Positions 3,362 through 22,841 are shown, counted from the first letter of the stretch. The stretch is DNA of 30,763 bases from a virus (IMGVR_UViG_3300043253_000059:1-30763), one strand, 5' to 3'. Notes: generated from the letters alone by a model not told the origin. A program made the numbers and translations.

Positions 3362-3628
3362 TTAGATCCGCGTATAGCCGTCTTCGAAGGCTTTGGCGGG
3401 ACTGATCGACTGGTAGCCGTCATCATAGACGACGAGATAGTCGCCGGATTTTGCTGCCGCGAAGCGCTCGAAGGGCGCGACCTGAATAGGCGCGTACCCC
3501 GTTTCGACGAATTGGAACCGTTTATCGCCATTCAGAGCGGTTTCGACGCCGGCGATCTTCAACGCCCAGACTTCCTTGTGGCATCGGTAGCGCGGCATCT
3601 GCGCGCCGACCTGTTCGTGCTCGCTCAA
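3362..3628 (-). CDS. Conserved phage hypothetical protein (MPRY.CHK.VWALKI / Y.DGY.S.SP..FE.GY type)
   Basis: Recognisable phage motif; overlaps the stop of the upstream gene. Confidence 0.7.
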   Translation of the reverse strand: MSEHEQVGAQMPRYRCHKEVWALKIAGVETALNGDKRFQFVETGYAPIQVAPFERFAAAKSGDYLVVYDDGYQSISPAKAFEDGYTRI

Positions 3629-3969
3629 TCTTCAGCTCCTATTCGGCCCCGCCGCAGCGCCGAAGCAAGGACCGGGTCCGCTTCGTCGAGATCAGCCCAG
3701 ATATCCCAGCCGGCCTTTTGCTCGCCGGCGAAGAACCAGGTGCGCTCTCCGGTCACGTTGGCGAACTTGGTGTCGAAAGTGTGCAGCCGGTCGAGGACTT
3801 CCTTGAGCCAGAGGCGCCCATGCTGGTGCTGCATCGCATGGACGAGAAACGCCCGGCGCATCTCCTTGGCGCGCCGTTCGGCCAGGGCTTCTTCGGTCTC
3901 GCGCTCCCGCTCGGTCGGGTTGAGATGATCGCGGACCGAGAAATCGTCGAGGTTGCGCTCATCGCTCAC
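3625..3969 (-). CDS. Bbp19-like head-module protein
   Basis: GRLWL..VL....TF.....T.F.AG...G motif; GTG start in GTGA overlap with the upstream stop; sits between portal and scaffold. Confidence 0.65.
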   Translation of the reverse strand: MSDERNLDDFSVRDHLNPTERERETEEALAERRAKEMRRAFLVHAMQHQHGRLWLKEVLDRLHTFDTKFANVTGERTWFFAGEQKAGWDIWADLDEADPVLASALRRGRIGAED

Positions 3970-4403
3970 GGCAGGATGATGCGGCCGGGCTGCGGGGTCT
4001 TGCGCAGGAACTGCGGCAGCAAGAGCAAAGGCCGCTCGCGGCTGAAGGACGACACTTCGGTCTTGCGGTTGGCGAGAATTTCGAATTTGTGGAGGCAGAG
4101 CTCGAAGACCGCGGCGAGTTCGCCGAACTTGGTCCACCGGTGATTGTTGCGGTAGAACTGCACCGCCTTGTCCAGTTTGGTGCCGAAATAATTGCCGAGT
4201 TCGAGCCAGGTGAAGTCGTCGCCACGCTCATGGCTGATATCGCGGCAGATTTTCTCGACCCGCTTCACCATCTTGCGCAGCTCGATGTATTTGAGGGTGC
4301 GGGGCGACGGCTCGTTGGCGTTGAGCTTCAATTCGTTGCAGAGTTCGATCGAGCGCCGCATCGCCTCGCGTGCGAGGGTGAAATCTTCGGTTTCGCGGGA
4401 CAT
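3966..4403 (-). CDS. Hypothetical protein
   Basis: 145 aa, directly abuts both neighbours, phage-like codon usage. Confidence 0.65.
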   Translation of the reverse strand: MSRETEDFTLAREAMRRSIELCNELKLNANEPSPRTLKYIELRKMVKRVEKICRDISHERGDDFTWLELGNYFGTKLDKAVQFYRNNHRWTKFGELAAVFELCLHKFEILANRKTEVSSFSRERPLLLLPQFLRKTPQPGRIILP

Positions 4404-4655
4404 CTAGGCGCGCCCGTCGGCCTCGCGGAAGCCGGGCAGGTCCCGGGGATCGTCGTCGACCGCAAGGCGCAGCACGTTGATGACGCCGTGATTGGGCCGG
4501 CTGGCGAATTCGAGATGCCCGATCCGGTACTGTTTCATTCCGTACAGCGTGGGGCAATAGACAACGTCGTGCCTGGTCAGATCCCGAAGCTCGATCACAT
4601 CGCAGTTGCCCGCGAGGCGAGGCTTGCCGTCGGTGCAGTCGATATAGACCAGCAT
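4404..4655 (-). CDS. Hypothetical protein (MLVYIDCTDG...)
   Basis: ATG 4655 overlaps the portal stop (TGATG); real part of the 4404..5045 track ORF. Confidence 0.6.
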   Translation of the reverse strand: MLVYIDCTDGKPRLAGNCDVIELRDLTRHDVVYCPTLYGMKQYRIGHLEFASRPNHGVINVLRLAVDDDPRDLPGFREADGRA

Positions 4656-6499
4656 CAGGCCTGGTTCCCCAGAAGAGCCGAGAGCGCGGTGTTGCCGCCG
4701 AGCCCCGTCTTGGAAAGGGTATTCGCCCCCTGGACCGCGGCCTGGCCGACTTGGGCTTGGGCCGCGAGCTGCGCCGCGGCTTGGGCCTGTTGTTTCAAGA
4801 GCCGGACCTGCGAGGCCGAGCGGATGATCCGCGAGGATGCTCCGCGCAGCTTGGCGACTTCGCGCACCGACTCGTCGGCGTCGAGGACGTATTTCGAATC
4901 GGGGAATTCGGCGGCGATCGACTGGGCAAAGGCATAGGTGCGCTCGATCGAGGAGACGCTTCCCGCTCGTCGCGCCCGGGTGAGTTCGGATTCGAAGCTG
5001 ACCTGGAGCGGGATGCCGTAGAGGCTCGGCGGGAGCTTCGGCCACATGCCCCTGCGGTGCAGGATCGCCAATTGGCGCTTGATCCGGGGCTGCAGGCCGT
5101 AGCGGTAGACCCGGTAGATGACGCCGCCCAACTGCCGCAGCAATTCTTCGCGCACCGCATCGATCTCCGTCGCCGATACGTCGCGCTTGGTGTTGTGGGC
5201 AATCTCCTCGATCGCCCGGAAGAGGTCGGCGTGCGACCCGCGGTGGATGCGCTCGCGCACCTTTTCCATGTTCTCGCGCAGCGCGGCGAGCGCCTGTGGG
5301 TCGACGACGTAATTGGGCTTGAATTCCGGGGCGCCGGTCGCCGAATCGTAATACGTGATGTGGTCGGGTTTGGTTGAATGCGGATCGTTCTTGAGGCTGA
5401 CCGGAGCGCTGTAGGAAGGCCGCGCCAATTTCTCGGCGAGCTCGGCTTCCCGGGCGACCATGATCTGCAACTGGATCGTATCGCCGAGGATCGTTTCACC
5501 CAGACCATGCCCATAAGGGTCGTTGGAGACGCGGTGCCAGGGCGCGGCGGCAAAGGGCTTCTCGCGGAAGCCCGCGACGGACAGCGGCGCTTCGTTCGAC
5601 TTGCCGACGATCCAATAGATTTCGCGCCAGGTAAAGCCGCCGGGGAGCCTGCCGCATTCGCTACCCGGCTCCCTTCCTTCGATCGCGAAATTGGGCTCGA
5701 TCGTGTGACCGACGACATATTCGTATTCGAGCGCGCCGCCCTTTTGCCGCCATTTCTGCTTGACTTCCTCGGGGCAATTGGCGAGGCCGAACTGCTCGAC
5801 GATCTGCGAGACGGTGCGGCGTTCCTCGACTTCCAGCACCTGGTCGGCGTAATCGGCCCCGGCGGCGAGGCAGAATTCGCCGGCACACGGGTTCTTGGAG
5901 ATGAAGATGTTTTCCTTGTCTTCGTAATCGACCGTGACGCCGGTCCCGAACGCCGTGATGTCCTCGTAGAAGAGATCGAGGCTCTCATAGAAATTGGTCT
6001 GGTCCTGGACGAACCGGAGGGTCTCGGTCAGATCCTCGAAAAACATCATCCCGGCGCGGTCGAGCTCCATCCCCGGGATGCCGGGGCCCAATTGCAGCCA
6101 TTCGCTGTCGGGGTCGGTGCAGGTCACCATGAGGCCGTTGGTGCAGGCCTCCAGATCGAGGGTCGCGGTGTTGTCGAGAATGTTGCCGTCTTTGCGCAGG
6201 CCCTTGTTGTAATTGTTCTCGACGATAAAGGCGTGGTATCTGCGAGGGAGCTCGAACCGGGCGATATCGCCCCAGGTCCGCCACCACGGAAGCCGCCAGG
6301 TCTTGTCTCCCGCCAAGCGCTGCTCGAGGTGGAGATACATCTGCGGCCAGCCGAGCCAGTCCGGCGCCTTGGTTTCGGGAACCTCGTTGAGGTTTGCCGG
6401 CTCCTGGGCGAGGAGCGCGGGGCTCGCGTTGAAGTAATAGGGCTGGGCCGGGTTGAAGCCCCTCTCGCCATAGCGTTTCTGGGCGGCGGCTTCAGCCAA
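4655..6499 (-). CDS. Portal (head-to-tail connector) protein
   Basis: 614 aa; FGTG, PF...W...S.DPYGHG.G...LGD..QLQ and SATEI....EE motifs typical of the podoviral head-tail connector family. Confidence 0.9.
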   Translation of the reverse strand: MAEAAAQKRYGERGFNPAQPYYFNASPALLAQEPANLNEVPETKAPDWLGWPQMYLHLEQRLAGDKTWRLPWWRTWGDIARFELPRRYHAFIVENNYNKGLRKDGNILDNTATLDLEACTNGLMVTCTDPDSEWLQLGPGIPGMELDRAGMMFFEDLTETLRFVQDQTNFYESLDLFYEDITAFGTGVTVDYEDKENIFISKNPCAGEFCLAAGADYADQVLEVEERRTVSQIVEQFGLANCPEEVKQKWRQKGGALEYEYVVGHTIEPNFAIEGREPGSECGRLPGGFTWREIYWIVGKSNEAPLSVAGFREKPFAAAPWHRVSNDPYGHGLGETILGDTIQLQIMVAREAELAEKLARPSYSAPVSLKNDPHSTKPDHITYYDSATGAPEFKPNYVVDPQALAALRENMEKVRERIHRGSHADLFRAIEEIAHNTKRDVSATEIDAVREELLRQLGGVIYRVYRYGLQPRIKRQLAILHRRGMWPKLPPSLYGIPLQVSFESELTRARRAGSVSSIERTYAFAQSIAAEFPDSKYVLDADESVREVAKLRGASSRIIRSASQVRLLKQQAQAAAQLAAQAQVGQAAVQGANTLSKTGLGGNTALSALLGNQA

Positions 6500-6728
6500 G
6501 GAGCGCTATTCCTGCGGCCATGCCGACTATCCAACTGGCCGCGGCCAGGTATTTAGCGGCCCTCTCGTTCTCGGCGAGGATTAAATTGTAGGCGAGGAAA
6601 GCGAAGCCGGCGCTGATGAGCGCCAAGCGCCACGCTGAGCCGTTCTGGGTCACCAGCCCGGCGATAAAGCATCCAGCCAGATAGAGCGCGGAATTGAGCG
6701 CGCCCACGTAGAAAACGGGCGTATTCAT
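6492..6728 (-). CDS. Small membrane protein with 3 hydrophobic segments
   Basis: MNTPVFYVGALNSALYLAGCFIAG...; start inferred at ATG 6728. Confidence 0.5.
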   Translation of the reverse strand: MNTPVFYVGALNSALYLAGCFIAGLVTQNGSAWRLALISAGFAFLAYNLILAENERAAKYLAAASWIVGMAAGIALLG

Positions 6729-6765
6729 CGGATCAATTCCGACCGCGAAGATGACGCCATAGCCG

Positions 6766-6972
6766 TCATTGTCCCAGAAGCGCCTTGGGTGCGGTCGGGG
6801 CATTGGGTGCGCCCTGGGGCGAGGTGGCGATGGTCTGGTTGGCGCTGGCCGCCGCCTGTTGCGTCTGGGCTTGTCCCGCGCCCTGGATGCCGGGATCGGC
6901 GTAGGTCGGCGGCGGAGGCGGAGGCGGCGGCGCCGGCGGCGCCTTGGGCGGGTTGAAGATGCTCAACGCCAC
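6766..6972 (-). CDS. Small proline-rich putative virion protein
   Basis: SIFNPPKAPPAPPPPPPPP...TIATSPQG...KALLGQ, typical of the small gene upstream of portal in this phage group. Confidence 0.6.
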   Translation of the reverse strand: MALSIFNPPKAPPAPPPPPPPPTYADPGIQGAGQAQTQQAAASANQTIATSPQGAPNAPTAPKALLGQ

Positions 6973-7079
6973 GGACTCACGAACCAGGCGATCTCGCGTT
7001 GGAAGCCGCGCAGGAACCACCAGCCGATACCGATGACGGTCAGGGCGCCGAGGGCGAAGCCAAGGAGGAGACCCGTCAC
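6963..7079 (-). CDS. Single-TM peptide (38 aa)
   Basis: GTG overlaps the nuclease stop (GTGA); LLLGFALGALTVIGIGWWFL is hydrophobic. Confidence 0.45.
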   Translation of the reverse strand: MTGLLLGFALGALTVIGIGWWFLRGFQREIAWFVSPWR

Positions 7080-7858
7080 GTCCGCATCCCGTAATGGTCG
7101 GCATCGAGGGCCGCTCTTGGGGTCCATTGTTCTTCGCGCGGCTTTCGTTCCGGCCAGAGGCTTTGGCGCACCACGTCGCTGTCCAAGGGACGGAAGGCAG
7201 CGATCGGCAGCCCGGACATCACGAGGTAGCGCAGGCAATCCATCAGATGGTCGTTGGATTTGACGACCTTCCCCTTGTCGTCGCGGCGGTAGATGCGGAA
7301 TTCGCCCATCAGGTTGACGAGGGTCGAAAATATCTTGAGCCGGCCCGACGACATCCGCGACCAGACCTCGTAGATCCCGGCCTCGACCGCGTTGTCGGCC
7401 GGGGTGATCCGCAGACCGAGGCCCTGGTACATCGTGGACAGCCGCGTCCCATCGATCTGGCTCCGGCCGCGAGCCGCCGGATCGTGCACTCCGGGTATCC
7501 AGGCGCCGCGCGCGCGGATCGCCTGGGCATGAACGGCGGGCTCGACCTCGCCCCGGTAATGCTCGGAATAAAGGTAGAGGACATCGGCTTCGGGATCGAG
7601 CGCGCCCCAGAGCGCGGCTGTCCTGTTCCACCCGACGTCCAGGGCGTAGGCATGCTTCCAGTATTTCGGCAGCTCGAACGGCGCGCAGAGGAGATCCTCT
7701 TCCGGCACCGGGTAGATCGCCCCCGACCCCAGCCGCGGCAGCCCGCGCATACGGGCGTCCCGTTCATGCGGCGGATAGGCTTCGGCGAGAGACTTCTTGG
7801 CTTCGGGCGAGAGATGAGGAACATCGTCCCAGCCCGCCATGACGACGTATTTGGTCAC
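7076..7858 (-). CDS. Terminase large subunit, C-terminal lid/RNase H-like nuclease part (P22 gp2-like), encoded separately
   Basis: WDDVPHL....K......YPPHERDAR.RG.P.LGSGAIYPV, ALDVGW, DPAA and NDHLMDCLRY acidic motifs. Confidence 0.88.
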   Translation of the reverse strand: MTKYVVMAGWDDVPHLSPEAKKSLAEAYPPHERDARMRGLPRLGSGAIYPVPEEDLLCAPFELPKYWKHAYALDVGWNRTAALWGALDPEADVLYLYSEHYRGEVEPAVHAQAIRARGAWIPGVHDPAARGRSQIDGTRLSTMYQGLGLRITPADNAVEAGIYEVWSRMSSGRLKIFSTLVNLMGEFRIYRRDDKGKVVKSNDHLMDCLRYLVMSGLPIAAFRPLDSDVVRQSLWPERKPREEQWTPRAALDADHYGMRT

Positions 7859-7859
7859 T

Positions 7860-9335
7860 CTACCAGCCCCACGCCGTCTTGCGCAGTTCCTCGGTCTCGG
7901 GGTAGGCCCCGCCGGGGAGGAAGTTGAGGACGGTCGCCGATATCCCCTGGAGCGGGGTGAAAAGGCCCATGATGAGCCCCGAGGGTTCGGCGGGGTTGGT
8001 CGACATCGTGCGGGTCAGGGTCTCGGTGTAGATGTCGAAGGGCGGCTCTTCGTCGAGCAGCGCGCCGTCGATCTTCGCCGATTGGAAGCTCTTGCGCTTC
8101 TGTTCATAGGCCTTGTAGACCAGATGCGAGCTGTAGCCGCTGTCGCGGTAGCGGATTTCCGCGAAATCAAGCGCATCGGGGATGCCGCCGCGGGTCGGCG
8201 AACGGCCGATCTTGTCGAAGGGGATGAGGCCGGTGCCGGGCTTCTCGGGCGGTCCCATCAGGGTCAACTGCATCCCTTCGCGCACCGCCTTGGCGTCTTC
8301 CCCCGCCGCCCACCAGGTTGTCGGACGCTCGAACCTGCGGCCTTCCCACCAAAGGGGATACCAGCCGGTCAAATGAAGCGCCGCCTCGTAGCATCCGGCA
8401 TAGGTCTTGCCGACGCGGTTGCCGGCGATAAAGGCGCGCTCGTGGTGCTTGGCGCCGGCCTTGAAGAATTCGAGATGCTTCGGATAGAGCTCGCGCCGCA
8501 GCGGGCCTTCCTCGGGGAAGGCATCGTAGAGCGCGCGGCGTTCGGCAAGATATTCATCGAGGCTCTTGCCCTCGGCGGCCGCGGCCCTGGCGGCGTTGGC
8601 GTCGATCGTGCTGCCGCCGTATTCCGCATCGACATTGACCCGAACCCATTCGTCGCCCTTACCCCGGCTGGCCTGGCGCTGGTAGAAATTCTTCGGGAGG
8701 TAATGGCCGCCCTCGGCGAGGTGGGTGCGCCCTCCCGGTTGGCGGTAGCGCTCGATGTCCTGGCGCTTGGCGAGGAAATGGTCTTCCGCCGGCATGCGCG
8801 AGGTGAGAATGACCCCGGACCACAGCGCATCTTCATGCAGCGAATCGGGGTAGGTTCCGGCGGCATCGATCGCGTCGGCGAGGATGTCCTCGGGATAATG
8901 TTTCGCCCAATCGAGCCAGATCCCCGTGGTCGGCAGTTGCAGGAGCTTCTTGCGGTGCTCGGGGCGGTCGAGGCTCAGAAAGTGGATTTCGAGTTCGACC
9001 GCGACGATCCGGCCCTCGCGCTGGCCGATGCCGTAGCGCACCCAATGGGTCAGGGCTTTTTCGTCCCAGCTGCCGATATCCGTGGGGACGCGCGCCTTCC
9101 AGGCATCGATCGTCTTGCTCAATTTCGCCATGTCGGGAGCGCAGGCGAGCCAGCGCCAGCGCGGCTGAAAGAGACCCTGGCGGGCGAGCTGCTGGGGCTT
9201 CAGGATGATGTCGGCGACCGCGGTCCAGCGCCGGCCGCCCTTCATCGGACCCATCAGCGCCCGCGCGAACCCCTGGCTCTCGGCAAAGGCCGACGAGACG
9301 GGTCCGGGAGAGGTCCAGTTGAGGCTGATCGGCAT
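7860..9335 (-). CDS. Terminase large subunit ATPase part: degenerate N-terminal ATPase fused to an intact P22-like ATPase
   Basis: Second half has YPKHLEFF, AGNRVGKT (Walker A), LLDEEPP (Walker B) and FTPLQG; first half has GPMKGGRR, ELEIHFLSLDRP..KKLL and GIWLDW. Confidence 0.85.
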   Translation of the reverse strand: MPISLNWTSPGPVSSAFAESQGFARALMGPMKGGRRWTAVADIILKPQQLARQGLFQPRWRWLACAPDMAKLSKTIDAWKARVPTDIGSWDEKALTHWVRYGIGQREGRIVAVELEIHFLSLDRPEHRKKLLQLPTTGIWLDWAKHYPEDILADAIDAAGTYPDSLHEDALWSGVILTSRMPAEDHFLAKRQDIERYRQPGGRTHLAEGGHYLPKNFYQRQASRGKGDEWVRVNVDAEYGGSTIDANAARAAAAEGKSLDEYLAERRALYDAFPEEGPLRRELYPKHLEFFKAGAKHHERAFIAGNRVGKTYAGCYEAALHLTGWYPLWWEGRRFERPTTWWAAGEDAKAVREGMQLTLMGPPEKPGTGLIPFDKIGRSPTRGGIPDALDFAEIRYRDSGYSSHLVYKAYEQKRKSFQSAKIDGALLDEEPPFDIYTETLTRTMSTNPAEPSGLIMGLFTPLQGISATVLNFLPGGAYPETEELRKTAWGW

Positions 9336-15494: not shown

Positions 15495-16445
15495 TCAACC
15501 GACTAGCACGTCCGGCAAGTCGCCGATGGTGGGCGCGATGGTGTTTGTGCCGGGTGCGCCCAAGCCCATTGTCGGCTTTGCCTCATCGCTGGATCGGCCG
15601 CCTTCGATCGGCAGCAAAAAGGAACGCTGCGCCGGTGGCGGCTGGTGCTTGCGTTTGGCGCTCAGCACCTCGAGATGCTTTTTGACCCATTTCGGCATGG
15701 GATGCGCCTTGCGGTCACGAGCGAACGCCACGATGGCGCTATAGGGCAGCGCCTCTTCGATCGCGCTCATCTGAGGATAGCCGATCTCGATCCCGAAGAG
15801 CAGCGTCGCCTGGGCCCAGTTCACCGTCCATTGCTGGGCTGGCGTCAACGCTGGCTCAAGCTCCGCGTCGCCAAGCCTCTTTATATCGTTATAGTTATCT
15901 ACGTTTACGGGATTTTGGGAATGTGACGCCTTCCCGTGACGCGGCGCAACACCGCGGCCGGGAACGCCATCTGTTTGATATCGCGTCGGTTTATAATCCG
16001 TGAGGCGCGCTATCCCCGTCACGTCTCGCGTCACATGTGACGCTTGCGCCGTCACCGAAGCGTCACCAGCGTCACGCCCGTCACTCGCTGTGACGGTGGA
16101 TAACCCGGGGGACAACTCGGCGGCTTTCCGCCGTGCGCGCAACGCTCGCATGCGCCGCGTGCCCGGCCGCAGCATGGCTTCGGCCGGCGCTTCCGGCGCA
16201 TCGTCGACCAGGCGCCCGTCTTCGATCATGCCCAGATGCTCGAGCGCGCCCAGCGCACGGGCCGCCGCGCCTTCCCCGATGCTGATGCGCTCCGAGAGAT
16301 AGGCGGTACGTCCCGCCATCGGCAGATCGGCGAGTTCCGGGCTGTCGCGCAGCTCGGCGCGGATCGCCAGGATGACCGAGCGCGGCAACCGCGCGTGCCG
16401 CGCTGCAGCGACACAGAGCAGGTGCGCTTTGAGGCAATCACACAT
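15495..16445 (-). CDS. Putative replication initiator / replisome organiser
   Basis: N-terminal wHTH-like region, basic helix RRMRALRARRK, then a VT-rich linker produced by GTCAC/GTGAC repeats; GAGGG RBS. Confidence 0.55.
   Translation of the reverse strand: MCDCLKAHLLCVAAARHARLPRSVILAIRAELRDSPELADLPMAGRTAYLSERISIGEGAAARALGALEHLGMIEDGRLVDDAPEAPAEAMLRPGTRRMRALRARRKAAELSPGLSTVTASDGRDAGDASVTAQASHVTRDVTGIARLTDYKPTRYQTDGVPGRGVAPRHGKASHSQNPVNVDNYNDIKRLGDAELEPALTPAQQWTVNWAQATLLFGIEIGYPQMSAIEEALPYSAIVAFARDRKAHPMPKWVKKHLEVLSAKRKHQPPPAQRSFLLPIEGGRSSDEAKPTMGLGAPGTNTIAPTIGDLPDVLVG
15878..16115. repeat. Putative intragenic replication origin (iterons, DnaA-box-like sites, AT-rich tract)
   Basis: 10 GTCAC/GTGAC pentamers 15923-16094, palindrome GCGTCACATGTGACGC 16028-16043, GGTGGATAA 16095-16103, TTATCTACG 15895-15903, AT-rich 15878-15905. 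Confidence 0.6.
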
Positions 16446-16472
16446 TGGCGCATTCCCTCGCGAAAATAGCTG

Positions 16473-16500
16473 TTGACAGGTGACAGAATGTCACTATGCT
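16473..16500 (+). promoter_or_regulatory. Sigma70 promoter with operator palindrome in the spacer
   Basis: TTGACA-16 nt-TATGCT; spacer contains GTGACA-gaa-TGTCAC (16480-16494). Confidence 0.75.
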
Positions 16501-16511
16501 TTGACCCGTTC

Positions 16512-16532
16512 GCCGCGGGCTGCAACCCCGGC
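16512..16532 (+). promoter_or_regulatory. CUGCAA-loop hairpin 1
   Basis: GCCG(C)GGG-CTGCAA-CCCCGGC, followed by CCAACGGAG and ATG 16554. Confidence 0.7.
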
Positions 16533-16553
16533 ACTCACCAACGGAGTAACGCG

Positions 16554-16730
16554 ATGAGCGATCTTTCCATGTCGGTCGGGCGCGATTACCGCACCTCGAG
16601 CCAGTACGAATATGTGATCTACCGCGATGAGCGCGTTGTCGCGCGGCAGGGTTTTTACCGCAACTACAGCCAAGCCAAACGCGCCGGGCTGGCAGCCGCG
16701 GCGAAGCTCACCGTTAAGACGGAGGCTTGA
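16554..16730 (+). CDS. Small hypothetical protein (first gene of the island)
   Basis: GGAG RBS; MSDLSMSVGRDY..., 58 aa. Confidence 0.65.
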   Translation: MSDLSMSVGRDYRTSSQYEYVIYRDERVVARQGFYRNYSQAKRAGLAAAAKLTVKTEA

Positions 16731-16733
16731 GCC

Positions 16734-16964
16734 ATGACCATACATTTGAGCGTCGATCCCGATGCCTCGCTGCTGGCTCGGCTCTACGAAGTCGATATTC
16801 AGCGCTGCGGCGAGCACTGGGGAACCTTGAGCACCATCGCGTTGAGCCCGATGCGCGCCTGCGAGATTGCCGAGCGCAAGGCATTCGAGGCCAACGCCCG
16901 CGCCGGCGATCTCTCGGACTGGTTCGCCAGTGCCGTGCGCGAAGTCACCGACGAGGAGGGTTGA
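16734..16964 (+). CDS. Small hypothetical protein
   Basis: GGAGG RBS; 3 nt after the previous stop. Confidence 0.6.
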   Translation: MTIHLSVDPDASLLARLYEVDIQRCGEHWGTLSTIALSPMRACEIAERKAFEANARAGDLSDWFASAVREVTDEEG

Positions 16965-16967
16965 GCT

Positions 16968-17177
16968 ATGAACTACGCAATCGAGTGCCGGCGGGTGCAC
17001 ACTCGCGGCCATTGGCTGTTTCTCGGCAATCATCGGTGCGACTTGGCGACCGCGAAATGCGTTGCGCAAGACACCGCGACCGAATTGCAGCGCGAAACGC
17101 GGGTTGTGAATTATGGGAAAACCTTTCGCATCTTTGCCGAGTTTAGCGCGCTCGGGCAGCCCTTGCGGCCAGAATAG
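16968..17177 (+). CDS. Small hypothetical protein
   Basis: GGAGGG RBS; 3 nt after the previous stop. Confidence 0.6.
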   Translation: MNYAIECRRVHTRGHWLFLGNHRCDLATAKCVAQDTATELQRETRVVNYGKTFRIFAEFSALGQPLRPE

Positions 17178-17182
17178 CGCGA

Positions 17183-17225
17183 CCCTGCTGTCTCGCCCGT
17201 ACCTGGTGCGGGCGAGGTGGCAGGG
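17183..17225 (+). other. 20-bp stem-loop, fully paired only if G-U pairs are allowed
   Basis: CCCTGCTGTCTCGCCCGTAC-CTG-GTGCGGGCGAGGTGGCAGGG; 16 Watson-Crick plus 4 G-U pairs. Confidence 0.7.
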
Positions 17226-17245
17226 CCGTCCGGCTCTGTACCCTG

Positions 17246-17265
17246 GCGCCGCCTGCAAGCGGTGC
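17246..17265 (+). promoter_or_regulatory. CUGCAA-loop hairpin 2
   Basis: GCGCCGC-CTGCAA-GCGGTGC, followed by CCAACGGAGG and ATG 17286. Confidence 0.7.
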
Positions 17266-17285
17266 GACCCAACGGAGGATCTACG

Positions 17286-18155
17286 ATGTACGCCAACACC
17301 ATTTACGACGCCCGCGCTCGCTTCGACGGTTCCGCTCGCGCGATGACCGAGGACGAAATGCGCCGCAAGGCACCTTCGATCTTCGCGACCCAAGCGCACG
17401 AAAGCCGCTCCGAACGCTTTGCGCCCATCCCCACGATCGACGTCTTGCGCGGGCTGCAGGAAGAGGGATTTTACCCGCTCGCCTGCCGCCAGGCACTTAC
17501 CCGCGTCCCGGGCAAGGAGGATTTCACCAAGCACATGATCCGCCTGCGCCGATTGGATCAGGACGCCGCCTATAAAGTCGGCGACACGGTTTGCGAGATC
17601 GTTCTCAAAAATGCCAATGACGGCACGTCGGCCTATGATCTGATGGCCGGATTGTTCCGCATCCGGTGCTTGAACAGCCTTGTCGCGCAAACCGGGACGA
17701 TAGACACCGTCAAGGTGCGGCACTCGGGCGACGTGCAAGGCAAGGTGATCGAGGGGACCTATCACGTGCTCGAGGAGGCGCAGAAAGCTTTGGCCGCACC
17801 GCAGGACTGGAGCCAGCTCACCATGGGACGCGACGCCAAGACGGTTTTTGCGGAAGCGGCGCACGTGCTGCGCTTCGGTGACGCGGAGGGTAATGTCACG
17901 ACGCCGATCGCCGCGGACCAGCTGCTCAGCCCCCGGCGCTACGATGACCGGGCGGACGATCTGTGGACGACCTTCAATGTCGTGCAGGAGAACACCATCA
18001 GGGGCGGCTTGCATGCCTGGGGACGCGACGCCAATAACCACCGGCGCCGCACCACAACCCGCGAGGTGAAGGGCATCGACCAGGACGTGAAGCTGAATAA
18101 AGCGCTTTTTGTCCTTGCCGATCGGATGGCGCATATCCTCAAATCGGCCGCCTAA
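17286..18155 (+). CDS. DUF932 (DUF945/YubP-like) family protein
   Basis: APSIFA..AHESRSERF.PIPT..VL.GL..EGF, FTKH.IRLR, N.NDG.SAY.L.AG.FR..C.N, DLW.TFN.VQEN.IRGG, GIDQDVKLNKAL. Confidence 0.9.
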   Translation: MYANTIYDARARFDGSARAMTEDEMRRKAPSIFATQAHESRSERFAPIPTIDVLRGLQEEGFYPLACRQALTRVPGKEDFTKHMIRLRRLDQDAAYKVGDTVCEIVLKNANDGTSAYDLMAGLFRIRCLNSLVAQTGTIDTVKVRHSGDVQGKVIEGTYHVLEEAQKALAAPQDWSQLTMGRDAKTVFAEAAHVLRFGDAEGNVTTPIAADQLLSPRRYDDRADDLWTTFNVVQENTIRGGLHAWGRDANNHRRRTTTREVKGIDQDVKLNKALFVLADRMAHILKSAA

Positions 18156-18167
18156 CCACGCAACGCA

Positions 18168-18205
18168 CGGGCGTCCTGGCTGCAACCAGGCGCCCGCCTT
18201 TTTTT
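18168..18205 (+). terminator. CUGCAA-loop hairpin 3, with T-tract (intrinsic terminator-like)
   Basis: CGGGCG(T)CCTGG-CTGCAA-CCAGGCGCCCG-cc-TTTTTTT, then CGGAG RBS. Confidence 0.7.
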
Positions 18206-18218
18206 CGGAGCACAGGCA

Positions 18219-18428
18219 ATGACGCTGTACGAAGCCTATTTGGCCGGCTGGCAAAGCTGCTGCGATGGGGTTGACGGCCGATATTGGTTTACGCGACCGC
18301 AGGACGTGGAACGCGAGCCCGCGCTGAGACGCGCGTGGCAACAAGGATGGAGCGACGCATTCGAGCGCGAAGAAGAGGACGAAGAGCCGTTGCCCGAAAG
18401 CTTCCTGTCGTTGGAAGATCAGACGTAA
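18219..18428 (+). CDS. Small acidic hypothetical protein
   Basis: GGAG RBS; AY.AGW...AWQQGW motif (Rmf/CrpP-fold-like pattern). Confidence 0.6.
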   Translation: MTLYEAYLAGWQSCCDGVDGRYWFTRPQDVEREPALRRAWQQGWSDAFEREEEDEEPLPESFLSLEDQT

Positions 18429-18436
18429 GCGCGGTC

Positions 18437-18467
18437 GCGGGCGGCGCCCCTGCAAGGGCCCGCCCGC
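18437..18467 (+). promoter_or_regulatory. CUGCAA-loop hairpin 4
   Basis: GCGGGCGG(C)GCCC-CTGCAA-GGGCCCGCCCGC; third CCAACGGAG at 18491-18499. Confidence 0.7.
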
Positions 18468-18537
18468 TGCCCGCATTATCCCTCGCGACGCCAACGGAGC
18501 CGTCGGGAGGGGATACGAGAGAAAAGGGGATATCACG

Positions 18538-18756
18538 ATGTCAGCAGCGGAATTCAAGGCATGGCGCGAGCGTCTGGGGTTGAGCCAGCGCGGCGCCGCG
18601 GCGCGGCTTGGCCTCTCCAAGCGCACGATCATCCGCTACGAGAAAGGCACGCACCGGGTCAACCGTCATGTCGCGTTGTCCTGCGCGATTGCCGAAAGCA
18701 TGGTCAAGCCTCACCCGAAGGCCGCGCGCGCGGCGCTGCAGCCCGTCGAGGAATAG
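18538..18756 (+). CDS. XRE-family HTH transcriptional regulator
   Basis: EFKAWRERLGLSQRGAAARLGLSKRTIIRYEKG; AGGGG RBS. Confidence 0.88.
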   Translation: MSAAEFKAWRERLGLSQRGAAARLGLSKRTIIRYEKGTHRVNRHVALSCAIAESMVKPHPKAARAALQPVEE

Positions 18757-19121
18757 GTGAGCGGCGCATTGCCGAGCTTCAGGGGCGAACCCGGATCCAG
18801 CCGGGCTCGAGGATCATCGGTAAACCTCGGCCCTTCCCATACCGGGTGAGGAATGCGCGGCCTCACTCCGCCCATGTTGCCGGTGCGCGCGCGACCCGCT
18901 TGCGCCTTTTTGATACGGTCGGCATTGGCCTCGGCCTTTTCCTCCCGAGTGCGCTCGCGCAGTTCGATGCCTTTGTCGCGCAGGCGCTTCAATCGGCCAC
19001 CGATCGCGAATTCGTTGCGCCGCGGCATCTCTGCCGCGATCTCGAAGGCGCGCTTGCCGGCGTTCCACGCGAGGATCAGGATTTCGTCTTCAACCGAGGA
19101 CCATTTAGGGGATGTGCTCAT
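18711..19121 (-). CDS. GcrA/Myb-like N-terminal HTH protein
   Basis: WS..EDE.L...W.AG..A.EIA..M..RN..AI.GR..RL. Confidence 0.6.
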   Translation of the reverse strand: MSTSPKWSSVEDEILILAWNAGKRAFEIAAEMPRRNEFAIGGRLKRLRDKGIELRERTREEKAEANADRIKKAQAGRARTGNMGGVRPRIPHPVWEGPRFTDDPRARLDPGSPLKLGNAPLTYSSTGCSAARAAFG

Positions 19122-19519
19122 AGTAGCCTCTTGCCAAATTCGAGGGTTTCCAGGACGGCTTTAGCCTGCTCGCGGAGTTCGGCGCGCTCGCGATCGGTCC
19201 TTGCGTGATTGATCCGGCTTTTGAGGTGCGAGGGCATCATGGACCAGTGGCCGGAGCACCAGCTACGGCCCAAAGGCACGTCGCGCTCGCATCCGATCGC
19301 CTGGCATTTCGGCAAAATGGGCTCGCGTCGGTGGATTGGCGTCGTATCATCAGGCGAGAGTTTGAGGACGTCGTCACCCAGCGGCGGCAGCACTTCGAGC
19401 CCGTCGGCGCACGCATCGGGAGTGCGGCAGGCCGCGGGCAAGCGGATCTGCTGGTCGTCGATCGTCTCGGCAACCGCCAGGCATATAGGGCACTGGAAGA
19501 ATTCGTGGACGACGCTCAC
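19118..19519 (-). CDS. Cys-rich (Zn-finger) hypothetical protein
   Basis: CPIC, CQAIGC...WCSGHW..MP. Confidence 0.6.
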   Translation of the reverse strand: MSVVHEFFQCPICLAVAETIDDQQIRLPAACRTPDACADGLEVLPPLGDDVLKLSPDDTTPIHRREPILPKCQAIGCERDVPLGRSWCSGHWSMMPSHLKSRINHARTDRERAELREQAKAVLETLEFGKRLL

Positions 19520-21660: not shown

Positions 21661-22841
21661 GCCGGCGCCCCCTTCGGTAGGGCGAGGGGTTTCAGCCCAT
21701 CAGCGGCCCTCAGCTGGTTCGCTAGATCGTAGAGGCGCTGCAGCGAGCTCGGCTTGCCGTCGAGCACCACTTCGACTTTCTCAAGCCAAACCGTTCGGCC
21801 ATCTTGCGCGTCGGAAGGCTGGCCCTCGCGAATGATCGCGCTTCGGCCTTTGCCGCGCAGAAACGCCGCGACCTGCTCCGGCGATTGCACCAGGCTCACG
21901 CCCTTCTCGGCGATGAATTTGGCAATCGCGTCTCCGTCGGGCCCGGCGGGCTTCGGTTTCAGCGGCGGGGCTGTTGGCCGCAACGGCACCGCGGCGCGCG
22001 GGACAACCGGTCTAGCCGGTTCCGGCGCAGCGAGCGGCTTGGCTGCGGCGGCGCGTTGCGGCGTCAGCGCTCCGCGCAGCCCCGCGACGAGGAGCGGGAT
22101 CGCGCCGGAACCACCGAGCCCGAGCGGGCTTGTCGCCGCCCATCGCTCGGGGCCGAGTTTTTCGAGCGCCCGGCGCAGCTCTTCGGCGCTTCCGTTTTCG
22201 TTCAGGAACCGCGCCGCCGCCTCAAAGAACGCGCCGTGCAATACTCCCCGTTCGCGGCCCCAGCACGCCATCAGCACCGCGATGGCAGAACCGAGATTAG
22301 CCGCGCCCTGGGTTTTCAGCGCCCTGCGCAGCGACGGGATCGCCGCGGTTTTGCCTGGCGGCACCTGTTTGATCGCCATCGCGTAACCGAGCAATTCGAG
22401 ACCGGCCGCATCGGCAAGGCGCTTGAGTTCTACCGCCTCCGGGCGCCCCGCGAGCAATTCCCCCTTGAATAGAGCTTGTGGGCTAAGCCCAAGGCGGTCG
22501 CGGTTCGCCGACGCGAAGATTTCAGCGGCCTGGTCAGTCGAGGTGACGCCGACGACGACCGCCGGCACCAGCGGCTGGCCGACCGCCCGCGCCGCGGCGA
22601 CGCGGTGCTGGCCGTCGATAATTTCCCAACGGCCGCCCTCCTTCGCCATGACGATGACGACCTGAAACTTCGCCCAGCGAAAATTCGCGGCTATTCGGGC
22701 GATATGACGCTGCGAGGCAGGACGGTCGATCGTGCGCTGATACGCCTCATCGACGTCGAGCCGGTCGACCGGGAGCCACGCGAGCTCCGGACGCGGACCC
22801 GGACCGGGCGCGTCGGCAGCGTTCAGCACCGCGTCCACCAC
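21657..22841 (-). CDS. ParB/Srx-like N-terminal domain protein (DUF6551-like)
   Basis: L.W.PV..L.VD..YQR, IA..F.W..F, IIDGQHR.AAA. Confidence 0.8.
   Translation of the reverse strand: MVDAVLNAADAPGPGPRPELAWLPVDRLDVDEAYQRTIDRPASQRHIARIAANFRWAKFQVVIVMAKEGGRWEIIDGQHRVAAARAVGQPLVPAVVVGVTSTDQAAEIFASANRDRLGLSPQALFKGELLAGRPEAVELKRLADAAGLELLGYAMAIKQVPPGKTAAIPSLRRALKTQGAANLGSAIAVLMACWGRERGVLHGAFFEAAARFLNENGSAEELRRALEKLGPERWAATSPLGLGGSGAIPLLVAGLRGALTPQRAAAAKPLAAPEPARPVVPRAAVPLRPTAPPLKPKPAGPDGDAIAKFIAEKGVSLVQSPEQVAAFLRGKGRSAIIREGQPSDAQDGRTVWLEKVEVVLDGKPSSLQRLYDLANQLRAADGLKPLALPKGAPA

Follow-up and report, generated by a model that had tools for sequence, protein, structure and literature searches.

The closest described parallels to the locus considered here are operons governed by the anti-CRISPR-associated (Aca) repressors Aca1 and Aca2. 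The locus, hereafter the island, occupies positions 16473-18756 of the virus record IMGVR_UViG_3300043253_000059:1-30763, whose entire length of 30,763 bases is referred to as the window, and forms a rightward block flanked by leftward genes, in which hairpins with the loop CUGCAA recur between the genes. For Aca1 and Aca2, promoter repeats and leader hairpins are described, together with RNA motifs between genes inside the operons, and in the available portion of that study RNA binding by helix-turn-helix (HTH) repressors is shown for these two proteins only (PMC13551039). The Aca1 motif is an inverted repeat of ~20 nucleotides (nt) that follows directly on the start site, ends about 20 nt before the AUG and is built from a lower stem, up to two unpaired bases and an upper stem of 3 base pairs (bp) (PMC13551039). 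The island shares with the Aca1 operon of phage JBD30, which has a single RNA hairpin in its 5' UTR, a promoter palindrome, a small terminal HTH gene, intergenic hairpin copies and a leader hairpin whose geometry agrees with the Aca1 motif as that portion describes it (about 20 nt, bulged, ~20 nt to the AUG). The two differ in the RNA sequence (the Aca1 RNA listed in Table S3 of the PMC13551039 supplement is unlike the CUGCAA loop of the window), in the operator spacing (N3 in the window, N1 in JBD30), in the HTH proteins, whose likeness is limited to 13 of 21 identical residues within the HTH, and in the anti-CRISPR (acr) gene that an Aca1-type operon has and of which none was found in the island. 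A preliminary description of this DNA had recognised an Aca layout in the early-type operon with its repeated leader hairpins, promoter palindrome and terminal HTH, which the comparison backs. That the island would be a new kind of system is not supported, since the layout, intergenic motifs included, is already present in PMC13551039.

The best overall explanation of the island, with a probability of roughly 50%, is an Aca-like autoregulon in which the terminal HTH would act both on the promoter palindrome and on the CUGCAA hairpins in the mRNA. The parts of this reading differ in strength: the hairpins are very probably a functional RNA element, repression of the promoter DNA by the HTH is likely because of the layout, and the chances that the HTH itself reads the loop are about even. 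The observation behind it is real, comprising the hairpins, their spacing to start codons, the palindrome and the fact that further phages carry the loop on stems of their own. The features on which the reading rests are as follows.

16473..16500, + strand: sigma70-type promoter-like site, TTGACA-16 nt-TATGCT, agreeing with the consensus at 10 of 12 positions
16480..16494, no strand: perfect palindrome GTGACA-N3-TGTCAC in the promoter spacer, a candidate operator
16512..16532, + strand: hairpin 1, CUGCAA loop, 4 bp, a bulged C and 3 bp; 21 nt to the ATG
17246..17265, + strand: hairpin 2, CUGCAA loop, 7 bp; 20 nt to the ATG
18168..18205, + strand: hairpin 3, CUGCAA loop, 6 bp, a bulged U and 5 bp, then CC and T7; 22 nt from the stem end to the ATG
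18437..18467, + strand: hairpin 4, CUGCAA loop, 8 bp, a bulged C and 4 bp; 70 nt to the ATG of the HTH gene
18538..18756, + strand: terminal XRE-type HTH gene, 72 amino acids (aa), four helices, recognition-helix word RTIIRYE

The CTGCAA sequences at 16520, 17253, 18180 and 18450 form the hexaloop of each unconstrained minimum-energy fold in a 34-nt context (-12.4, -13.6, -22.0 and -28.0 kcal/mol for hairpins 1-4), with the closing pairs G-C, C-G, G-C and C-G and a single 5' bulge in hairpins 1, 3 and 4, while none of the remaining 16 CTGCAA of the window keeps the loop when folded (0/16). Outside the loop the four stems are unrelated in sequence. When the four spacers (333 nt in total) were shuffled by dinucleotide 1500 times, no shuffle gave at least three spacers sharing any loop 6-mer, and all four spacers shared a loop 4-mer in one shuffle; a shared loop arising by chance is thus excluded. 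Folding, together with palindrome and family searches, confirms what the preliminary description had reported: a CTGCAA-loop hairpin in all four longer spacers, divergent stems that remain paired, the closing pairs and three 5' bulges, hairpins 1-3 about 20 nt ahead of a start codon, CCAACGGAG after three hairpins (16538, 17269 and 18491), the palindrome in the promoter spacer, the DUF932 gene and an XRE HTH as last gene. Hairpin 3, to which that description had ascribed a terminator-like look, is followed by CC and seven T, although the terminator scan did not call it. Over 14 hairpins, 55 of 56 cells are paired with 29 double changes, a count not used as proof since the rows were chosen for folding. 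The window has no Rfam match at the gathering threshold (the single match, at E 7.3, is a chance one) and no ribozyme core; the CUGCAA hairpins of 12 other loci are likewise without an Rfam match. Literature searches, mainly of open-access texts and judged on their best-ranked matches, returned no description of the repeated-loop layout or of the CUGCAA loop.

Three further phage records (G402, G403 and G407) repeat CUGCAA hairpins, and the spacing from hairpin to start codon is 20-30 nt in the window and in all three. They emerged from an RNA pattern scan for G/C-flanked CTGCAA upstream of CAACGGAG, which returned 120 loci with 100 distinct matches; stems of at least four Watson-Crick pairs were found in 6 of the 22 matches with a following ATG as against 0 of the 78 without one (p 6e-5). 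Further copies, outside the pattern selection, were seen within the matched records. Sense CTGCAA lies in stems of at least four pairs in 8 of 13 cases in G402, 2 of 3 in G403 and 3 of 9 in G407, against a DUF932-locus background of 31/1200. The G403 stretch is truncated on its downstream side, and G404 and G405 hold one or two CUGCAA hairpins. When the window was compared with the fetched stretches by tblastx, short scattered segments were seen among the best five matches listed, the comparison with G402 covering 12-18 kb. Two other searches yielded candidates that were rejected: a stem-free search of viral contigs for CTGCAA with CCAACGGAG gave mostly chance matches (three pairs in 2 of 116 distinct matches), and a search that required a fixed TGG/CCA stem returned 61 loci, each without a second hairpin, in which the fourth pair formed at the chance rate (12/43). 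Lone TGG-CTGCAA-CCA hairpins stand before start codons in unrelated contigs (L242:3890-3915; L454, L463, L468 and L477 near 3500-3550), some preceded by an A-run; the last gene of the L242 operon is small and does not encode an XRE HTH. Among the viral contigs, Rfam also reports ar35 at L477:2807-2946 (above gathering) and an anti-hemB-like small RNA at L576:1403-1485 (below gathering).

The pairing of loop and HTH is best seen in G402 (also L718; G402:C1:44000-56000, minus strand), a complete 67-kb phage picked up via the RNA pattern alone, with the HTH not in the query. Eight CUGCAA stems, five of them identical, lie in one operon with a long structured 5' leader, and the last CUGCAA hairpin, with a Shine-Dalgarno sequence, precedes a terminal HTH, as in the window. 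This HTH has 70 aa, is 51% identical to the window HTH over 45 aa (E 5e-11) and has the word RT[IV]IRYE in common with it. GTGACA is present in the promoter spacer of G402, and an inverted copy of it lies about 100 nt further upstream. Among 29 loci fetched by HTH sequence, for which between 54 and 6000 nt of upstream DNA were covered, G402 alone has the RT[IV]IRYE word and G402 alone has at least two upstream CTGCAA hairpins; L735 has one hairpin. As this amounts to one HTH-loop pair, joint inheritance could explain it.

A second line of evidence comes from relatives of the DUF932 gene, of which 282 loci were fetched and 251, the window included, were unique. At least three leaders with a common loop 5-mer were found on the DUF932 strand in 13 of the 251 loci and at least four in 4 (2017 leaders), compared with 3 and 0 loci on the opposite strand for the same thresholds (1400 leaders); some of the 13 multi-leader loci are identical repeats or noise. 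Clear cases of a repeated loop are L253 (ATGGC), L220 (CCGAAAC), L337 (CGCAAA), L002 (TGGCA) and the Bradyrhizobium locus L172, and the loop word is constant inside an island and different between islands. The CUGCAA loop is, as judged from the fetched sequences, not conserved beside DUF932, while the architecture is: of 419 loci (2.5 Mb, 1745 CTGCAA), 7 hold one such hairpin and none holds two. The expectation in the preliminary description that the loop be conserved at homologous loci is thus contradicted in part, in that it fails beside DUF932 homologs.

L253 (IMGVR_UViG_3300049456_000112; 3500-8130) serves as a positive control. Eight of its 16 sense ATGGC lie in stems of at least four pairs, with 14-21 nt between each of them and a start codon, and its last gene is an HTH that aligns with Aca2 over 67 columns at 31% identity (pairwise E 3e-7). 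In ZF40, the leader of the aca2 operon carries the loop ATGGC on a stem; the Aca2 of ZF40 is taken here to be gp30, which the record labels hypothetical. Because L253 holds both the ATGGC loop of Aca2 and an Aca2-like terminal HTH, an island of this type can, on sequence grounds, encode a relative of a proven RNA-binding HTH and carry the loop that belongs to this HTH. The eight ATGGC-loop hairpins of L253 have different stems, and a GAAA-loop hairpin lies ahead of several; the locus is well suited as a natural test case for Aca2-type control of several genes. At L220:3350-7370 (Pseudooceanicola endophyticus), five or more [AT]CCGAAAC-loop hairpins stand before open reading frames (ORFs) and are followed by CCACA, with an HTH-like gene in terminal position; the CCGAAAC loop is found in five leaders on four stems. 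At L172:3400-4000 (Bradyrhizobium sp. Leo170), and also in L252, L262 and L264, three leader hairpins read CGCGC-N5-TGCGC, and a related HTH lies upstream of the operon, not at its end.

Aca2 (PF08965, phage ZF40) is the other known system against which the island can be set. It is an HTH with two kinds of target, promoter DNA and hairpins in the leader, as the available portion of the source has it (PMC13551039), and its ATGGC loop recurs in L253, a DUF932 island built like that of the window. The model of the window HTH superposes on the N-terminal fold of Aca2 at a root-mean-square deviation (rmsd) of 1.0 over 56 columns, with a template-modelling (TM) score of 0.72 by query, a weak likeness; Aca10 also gives an rmsd of 1.0. 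The differences are that BLASTP gives no alignment between the window HTH and ZF40 Aca2 and that the window HTH has no PF08965 match, that Aca2 has 116 aa and the window HTH 72 aa, that the loops read ATGGC and CTGCAA, and that Aca2 has a conserved hairpin pair whereas the window has single hairpins. The terminal HTH has an XRE fold according to its model (predicted local distance difference test score, pLDDT, 84; XRE four-helix) and matches HTH_3/HTH_31 above cut-off (E about 1e-9). Its profile matches Aca1 (7c0g) weakly, at E 9e-4 and as the fifth of five matches, and a single-sequence search of the PDB was empty. A close ortholog was not found, the homolog search giving the protein itself and then generic HTHs of 30-58% identity. 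Compared with acr-aca operons (Aca1-14) as a class, the island has the small HTH at the operon end and an inverted repeat over the promoter, and a known acr gene was not recognised. The island thus appears to work like Aca1 or Aca2 and yet cannot be filed as an acr-aca operon, because no acr is recognisable and the HTH apparently falls in neither the Aca1 nor the Aca2 family.

The remaining features of the island are the following.

16538..16546, + strand: CCAACGGAG, an A/C-rich run with the Shine-Dalgarno sequence of ORF1
16554..16730, + strand: ORF1, 58 aa, without family match
16734..16964, + strand: ORF2, 76 aa, without family match; the homolog search returned itself alone
16968..17177, + strand: ORF3, 69 aa, without family match above cut-off
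17183..17225, + strand: 20-bp hairpin in spacer 2 (spacer z -3.6), a possible RNase III site or insulator
17269..17277, + strand: CCAACGGAG, Shine-Dalgarno sequence of the DUF932 gene, with predicted pairing to 17235-17240
17286..18155, + strand: DUF932 protein, 289 aa (PF06067, phrog_12094; DUF932 E 1e-36)
18219..18428, + strand: ORF5, 69 aa, acidic tail; weak likeness to RMF below cut-off (Pfam RMF, E 0.025)
18480..18511, + strand: additional hairpin spanning the third CCAACGGAG (18491-18499), without a start codon behind it

The hairpins at 17183-17225 and 18480-18511 are absent from the preliminary description. The three copies of CCAACGGAG in the window (16538, 17269 and 18491) compare with a shuffle expectation of 0.29, and three were reached in 1 of 100 shuffles. 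GTGACA-N3-TGTCAC has its sole copy in the promoter spacer, even when up to 2 mismatches are allowed across the window, and a promoter scan of 16000-19200 found one intergenic promoter-like site. ORF1-3 and ORF5 have no Pfam, PHROG or NCBIfam match in these general libraries, which include no dedicated Acr set, so that a novel Acr would escape; ORF1, ORF3 and ORF5 have no tblastn match in the fetched loci, and the atlas matches of ORF5, at 0.83 or lower, are leads only. No known acr gene was recognised and no other anti-defence gene was identified in the operon; the proposal that the small ORFs encode anti-defence proteins, made in the preliminary description, is therefore unsupported. As for DUF932 as a hallmark of plasmid leading regions, the term is not in the main text of PMC11541004 and the claim could not be sourced.

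Under the autoregulon reading, strong early transcription would start from the promoter-like site, and the HTH, being made last, would accumulate late. An HTH dimer on GTGACA-N3-TGTCAC would then repress the promoter, and the same HTH would read the loop and the adjacent helix of the CUGCAA hairpins, a mode of recognition that would leave the stems free to vary around a fixed loop. The least certain point is what such binding would bring about: translation may be damped where the ribosome footprint ends, mRNA decay may change, termination at hairpin 3 may be favoured, or the repressor may be titrated.

Several results weigh against this reading, above all against its RNA-binding part. Aca1 binds its motif at about 61 nM without translational silencing, Aca10 and Aca12 have so far shown no binding to their motifs, and the ribbon-helix-helix (RHH) protein Aca14 has no RNA motif, in each case as given in the available portion of PMC13551039. 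In G402 the perfect palindrome is absent, leaving a half-site whose GTGACA is one letter off the -35 consensus. G407 (L574) has three CUGCAA hairpins with different stems in a primase-methyltransferase-excisionase operon, and its 18.4-kb record (51% complete) shows no terminal HTH of this type and no RT.IRYE word. L002 repeats TGGCA-loop hairpins in the same architecture and has an RHH-like last gene, and a downstream HTH was found by a local profile in only 25 of the 251 DUF932 loci. The scan with the HTH word gave no third case, and since G402 was itself in the second query, no blind case. The fold search with the HTH gave no match at E 0.001, and other XRE proteins score like Aca2. Stems of at least four pairs are about as frequent for the control loop CAGTCA (4/66) as for CTGCAA (6/100), the difference among matches with a following ATG being 6/22 for CTGCAA versus 0/7 for CAGTCA (p 0.16), and in 401 Hyphomicrobiales-centred genomes the pattern matched 15 times, with the reversed control matching about equally often. 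The earlier suggestion that the HTH reads the loop is thus supported by the L253 control and by the matching recognition helix of G402, and held back by G407, L002 and the lack of a third case.

The alternative that survives best, although it is still unlikely, is that the hairpins are leader elements independent of the HTH, each a stable cap or processing boundary next to an unstructured A/C-rich ribosome landing site, which host RNases, ribosomes or another host protein would read while the HTH binds DNA only. It would account for the CUGCAA hairpins of loci whose examined stretches show no RT.IRYE HTH (G407, and singly L242, L576 and G404), for the similar stem rates of the control loop and for the 20-bp stem in spacer 2. 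It also fits the DUF932-locus spacers that may carry type II hammerheads instead: Rfam RF02276 matches L006:4847-4907 and 5150-5211, in the same spacer positions, and hammerhead-like cores were seen by pattern alone in L001:3915-3975 and upstream of DUF932 in L285 and L332, whereas the window has neither an Rfam match nor a core. However, a cap could do without a constant loop, whereas the loop word is fixed per island and variable between islands, ATGGC accompanies an Aca2-like HTH, and CUGCAA accompanies the same helix word in two phages.

Lambdoid boxB sites likewise combine a fixed loop with a free stem, and the hairpins may be boxB-like utilisation sites or conditional terminators at which a phage or host protein controls read-through, for example beyond hairpin 3 into ORF5 and the HTH gene. 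The T7 tail of hairpin 3 upstream of the last two genes and the terminator-like stem that G402 has just ahead of its last CUGCAA hairpin point in this direction. It is nevertheless improbable, as three of the four window hairpins lack a U tail, their spacing follows start codons and not terminators, and no N-like protein was recognised by family searches.

Less probable again is that the hairpins are what remains of an expression cassette that was duplicated and also has a role in recombination, with a loop that is simply inherited, after the manner of the PeSL cassettes of T4-type phages, which share with the island a repeated intergenic stem-loop and a Shine-Dalgarno sequence before orphan genes. 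Near-identical leaders are indeed repeated in many islands (the five identical stems of G402; L002, L295 and L370), and the fourth copy in the window has a Shine-Dalgarno sequence without a gene. The window stems, though, share nothing but the loop, so that the stems changed while the loop stayed, and PeSLs, as far as the available portion of the source describes them, have a promoter in each unit and function as terminators and recombination sites (PMC2839356), as opposed to the single intergenic promoter found by scan in the island and its divergent stems around a fixed loop. That the hairpins act in single-stranded DNA or base-pair with an antisense loop from another part of the phage is very improbable, since they are strand-specific and spaced relative to the AUG. 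On the transcript strand of the island, moreover, CCAACGGAG has no complement even with 1 mismatch allowed; the single + strand match, at 21932, lies inside opposite-strand genes.

By its gene content the record is part of a tailed phage: family searches of the window found a terminase, head-tail connector and GP7 capsid protein, and further Bbp16, DUF5131, a methyltransferase, a ParB-like and an HU-like protein. The host is likely alphaproteobacterial, because the nearest named DUF932 relatives (69-73% identity) lie in Stappia, Labrys, Bradyrhizobium and Ensifer. The stretch is present in two soil-metagenome DNA runs, possibly its own source, whose contigs show no differences within the island, and there was no RNA run among the sequencing runs listed as containing it. 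At window position 15617 the record has A and both soil runs have C, and a 47.8-kb contig of run X2 covers the whole stretch, so that a longer copy of the phage exists. The terminase large subunit appears to be spread over two neighbouring ORFs on the minus strand, at 7076-7858 and 7860-9335 (ATPase part / RNase H-like part). On the same strand, a 712-codon open frame at 16494-18632 runs antisense to nearly the entire island and is probably a shadow frame.

For the wider family, it is tentatively suggested, at somewhat less than even odds, that such islands use a swappable protein-RNA code, in which the small HTH of each island reads its own loop word on hairpins before nearly every gene. The pairs of such a code would be CUGCAA with RT[IV]IRYE, AUGGC with Aca2-like proteins, and CCGAAAC and others. 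Aca1 and Aca2 would then be two members of a large family in which HTH-hairpin pairs are mutually orthogonal, and anti-defence genes that are co-regulated but still undescribed could be recognised by the loop word even at a distance from any known acr gene. The island presents one loop on four naturally different stems; together with a second phage whose recognition helix matches and with counter-cases that lack that HTH, it allows a compact test of the idea that this helix fixes the loop word. If it does, loop words would help to find orphan early genes under common control and would supply orthogonal pairs of protein and RNA.

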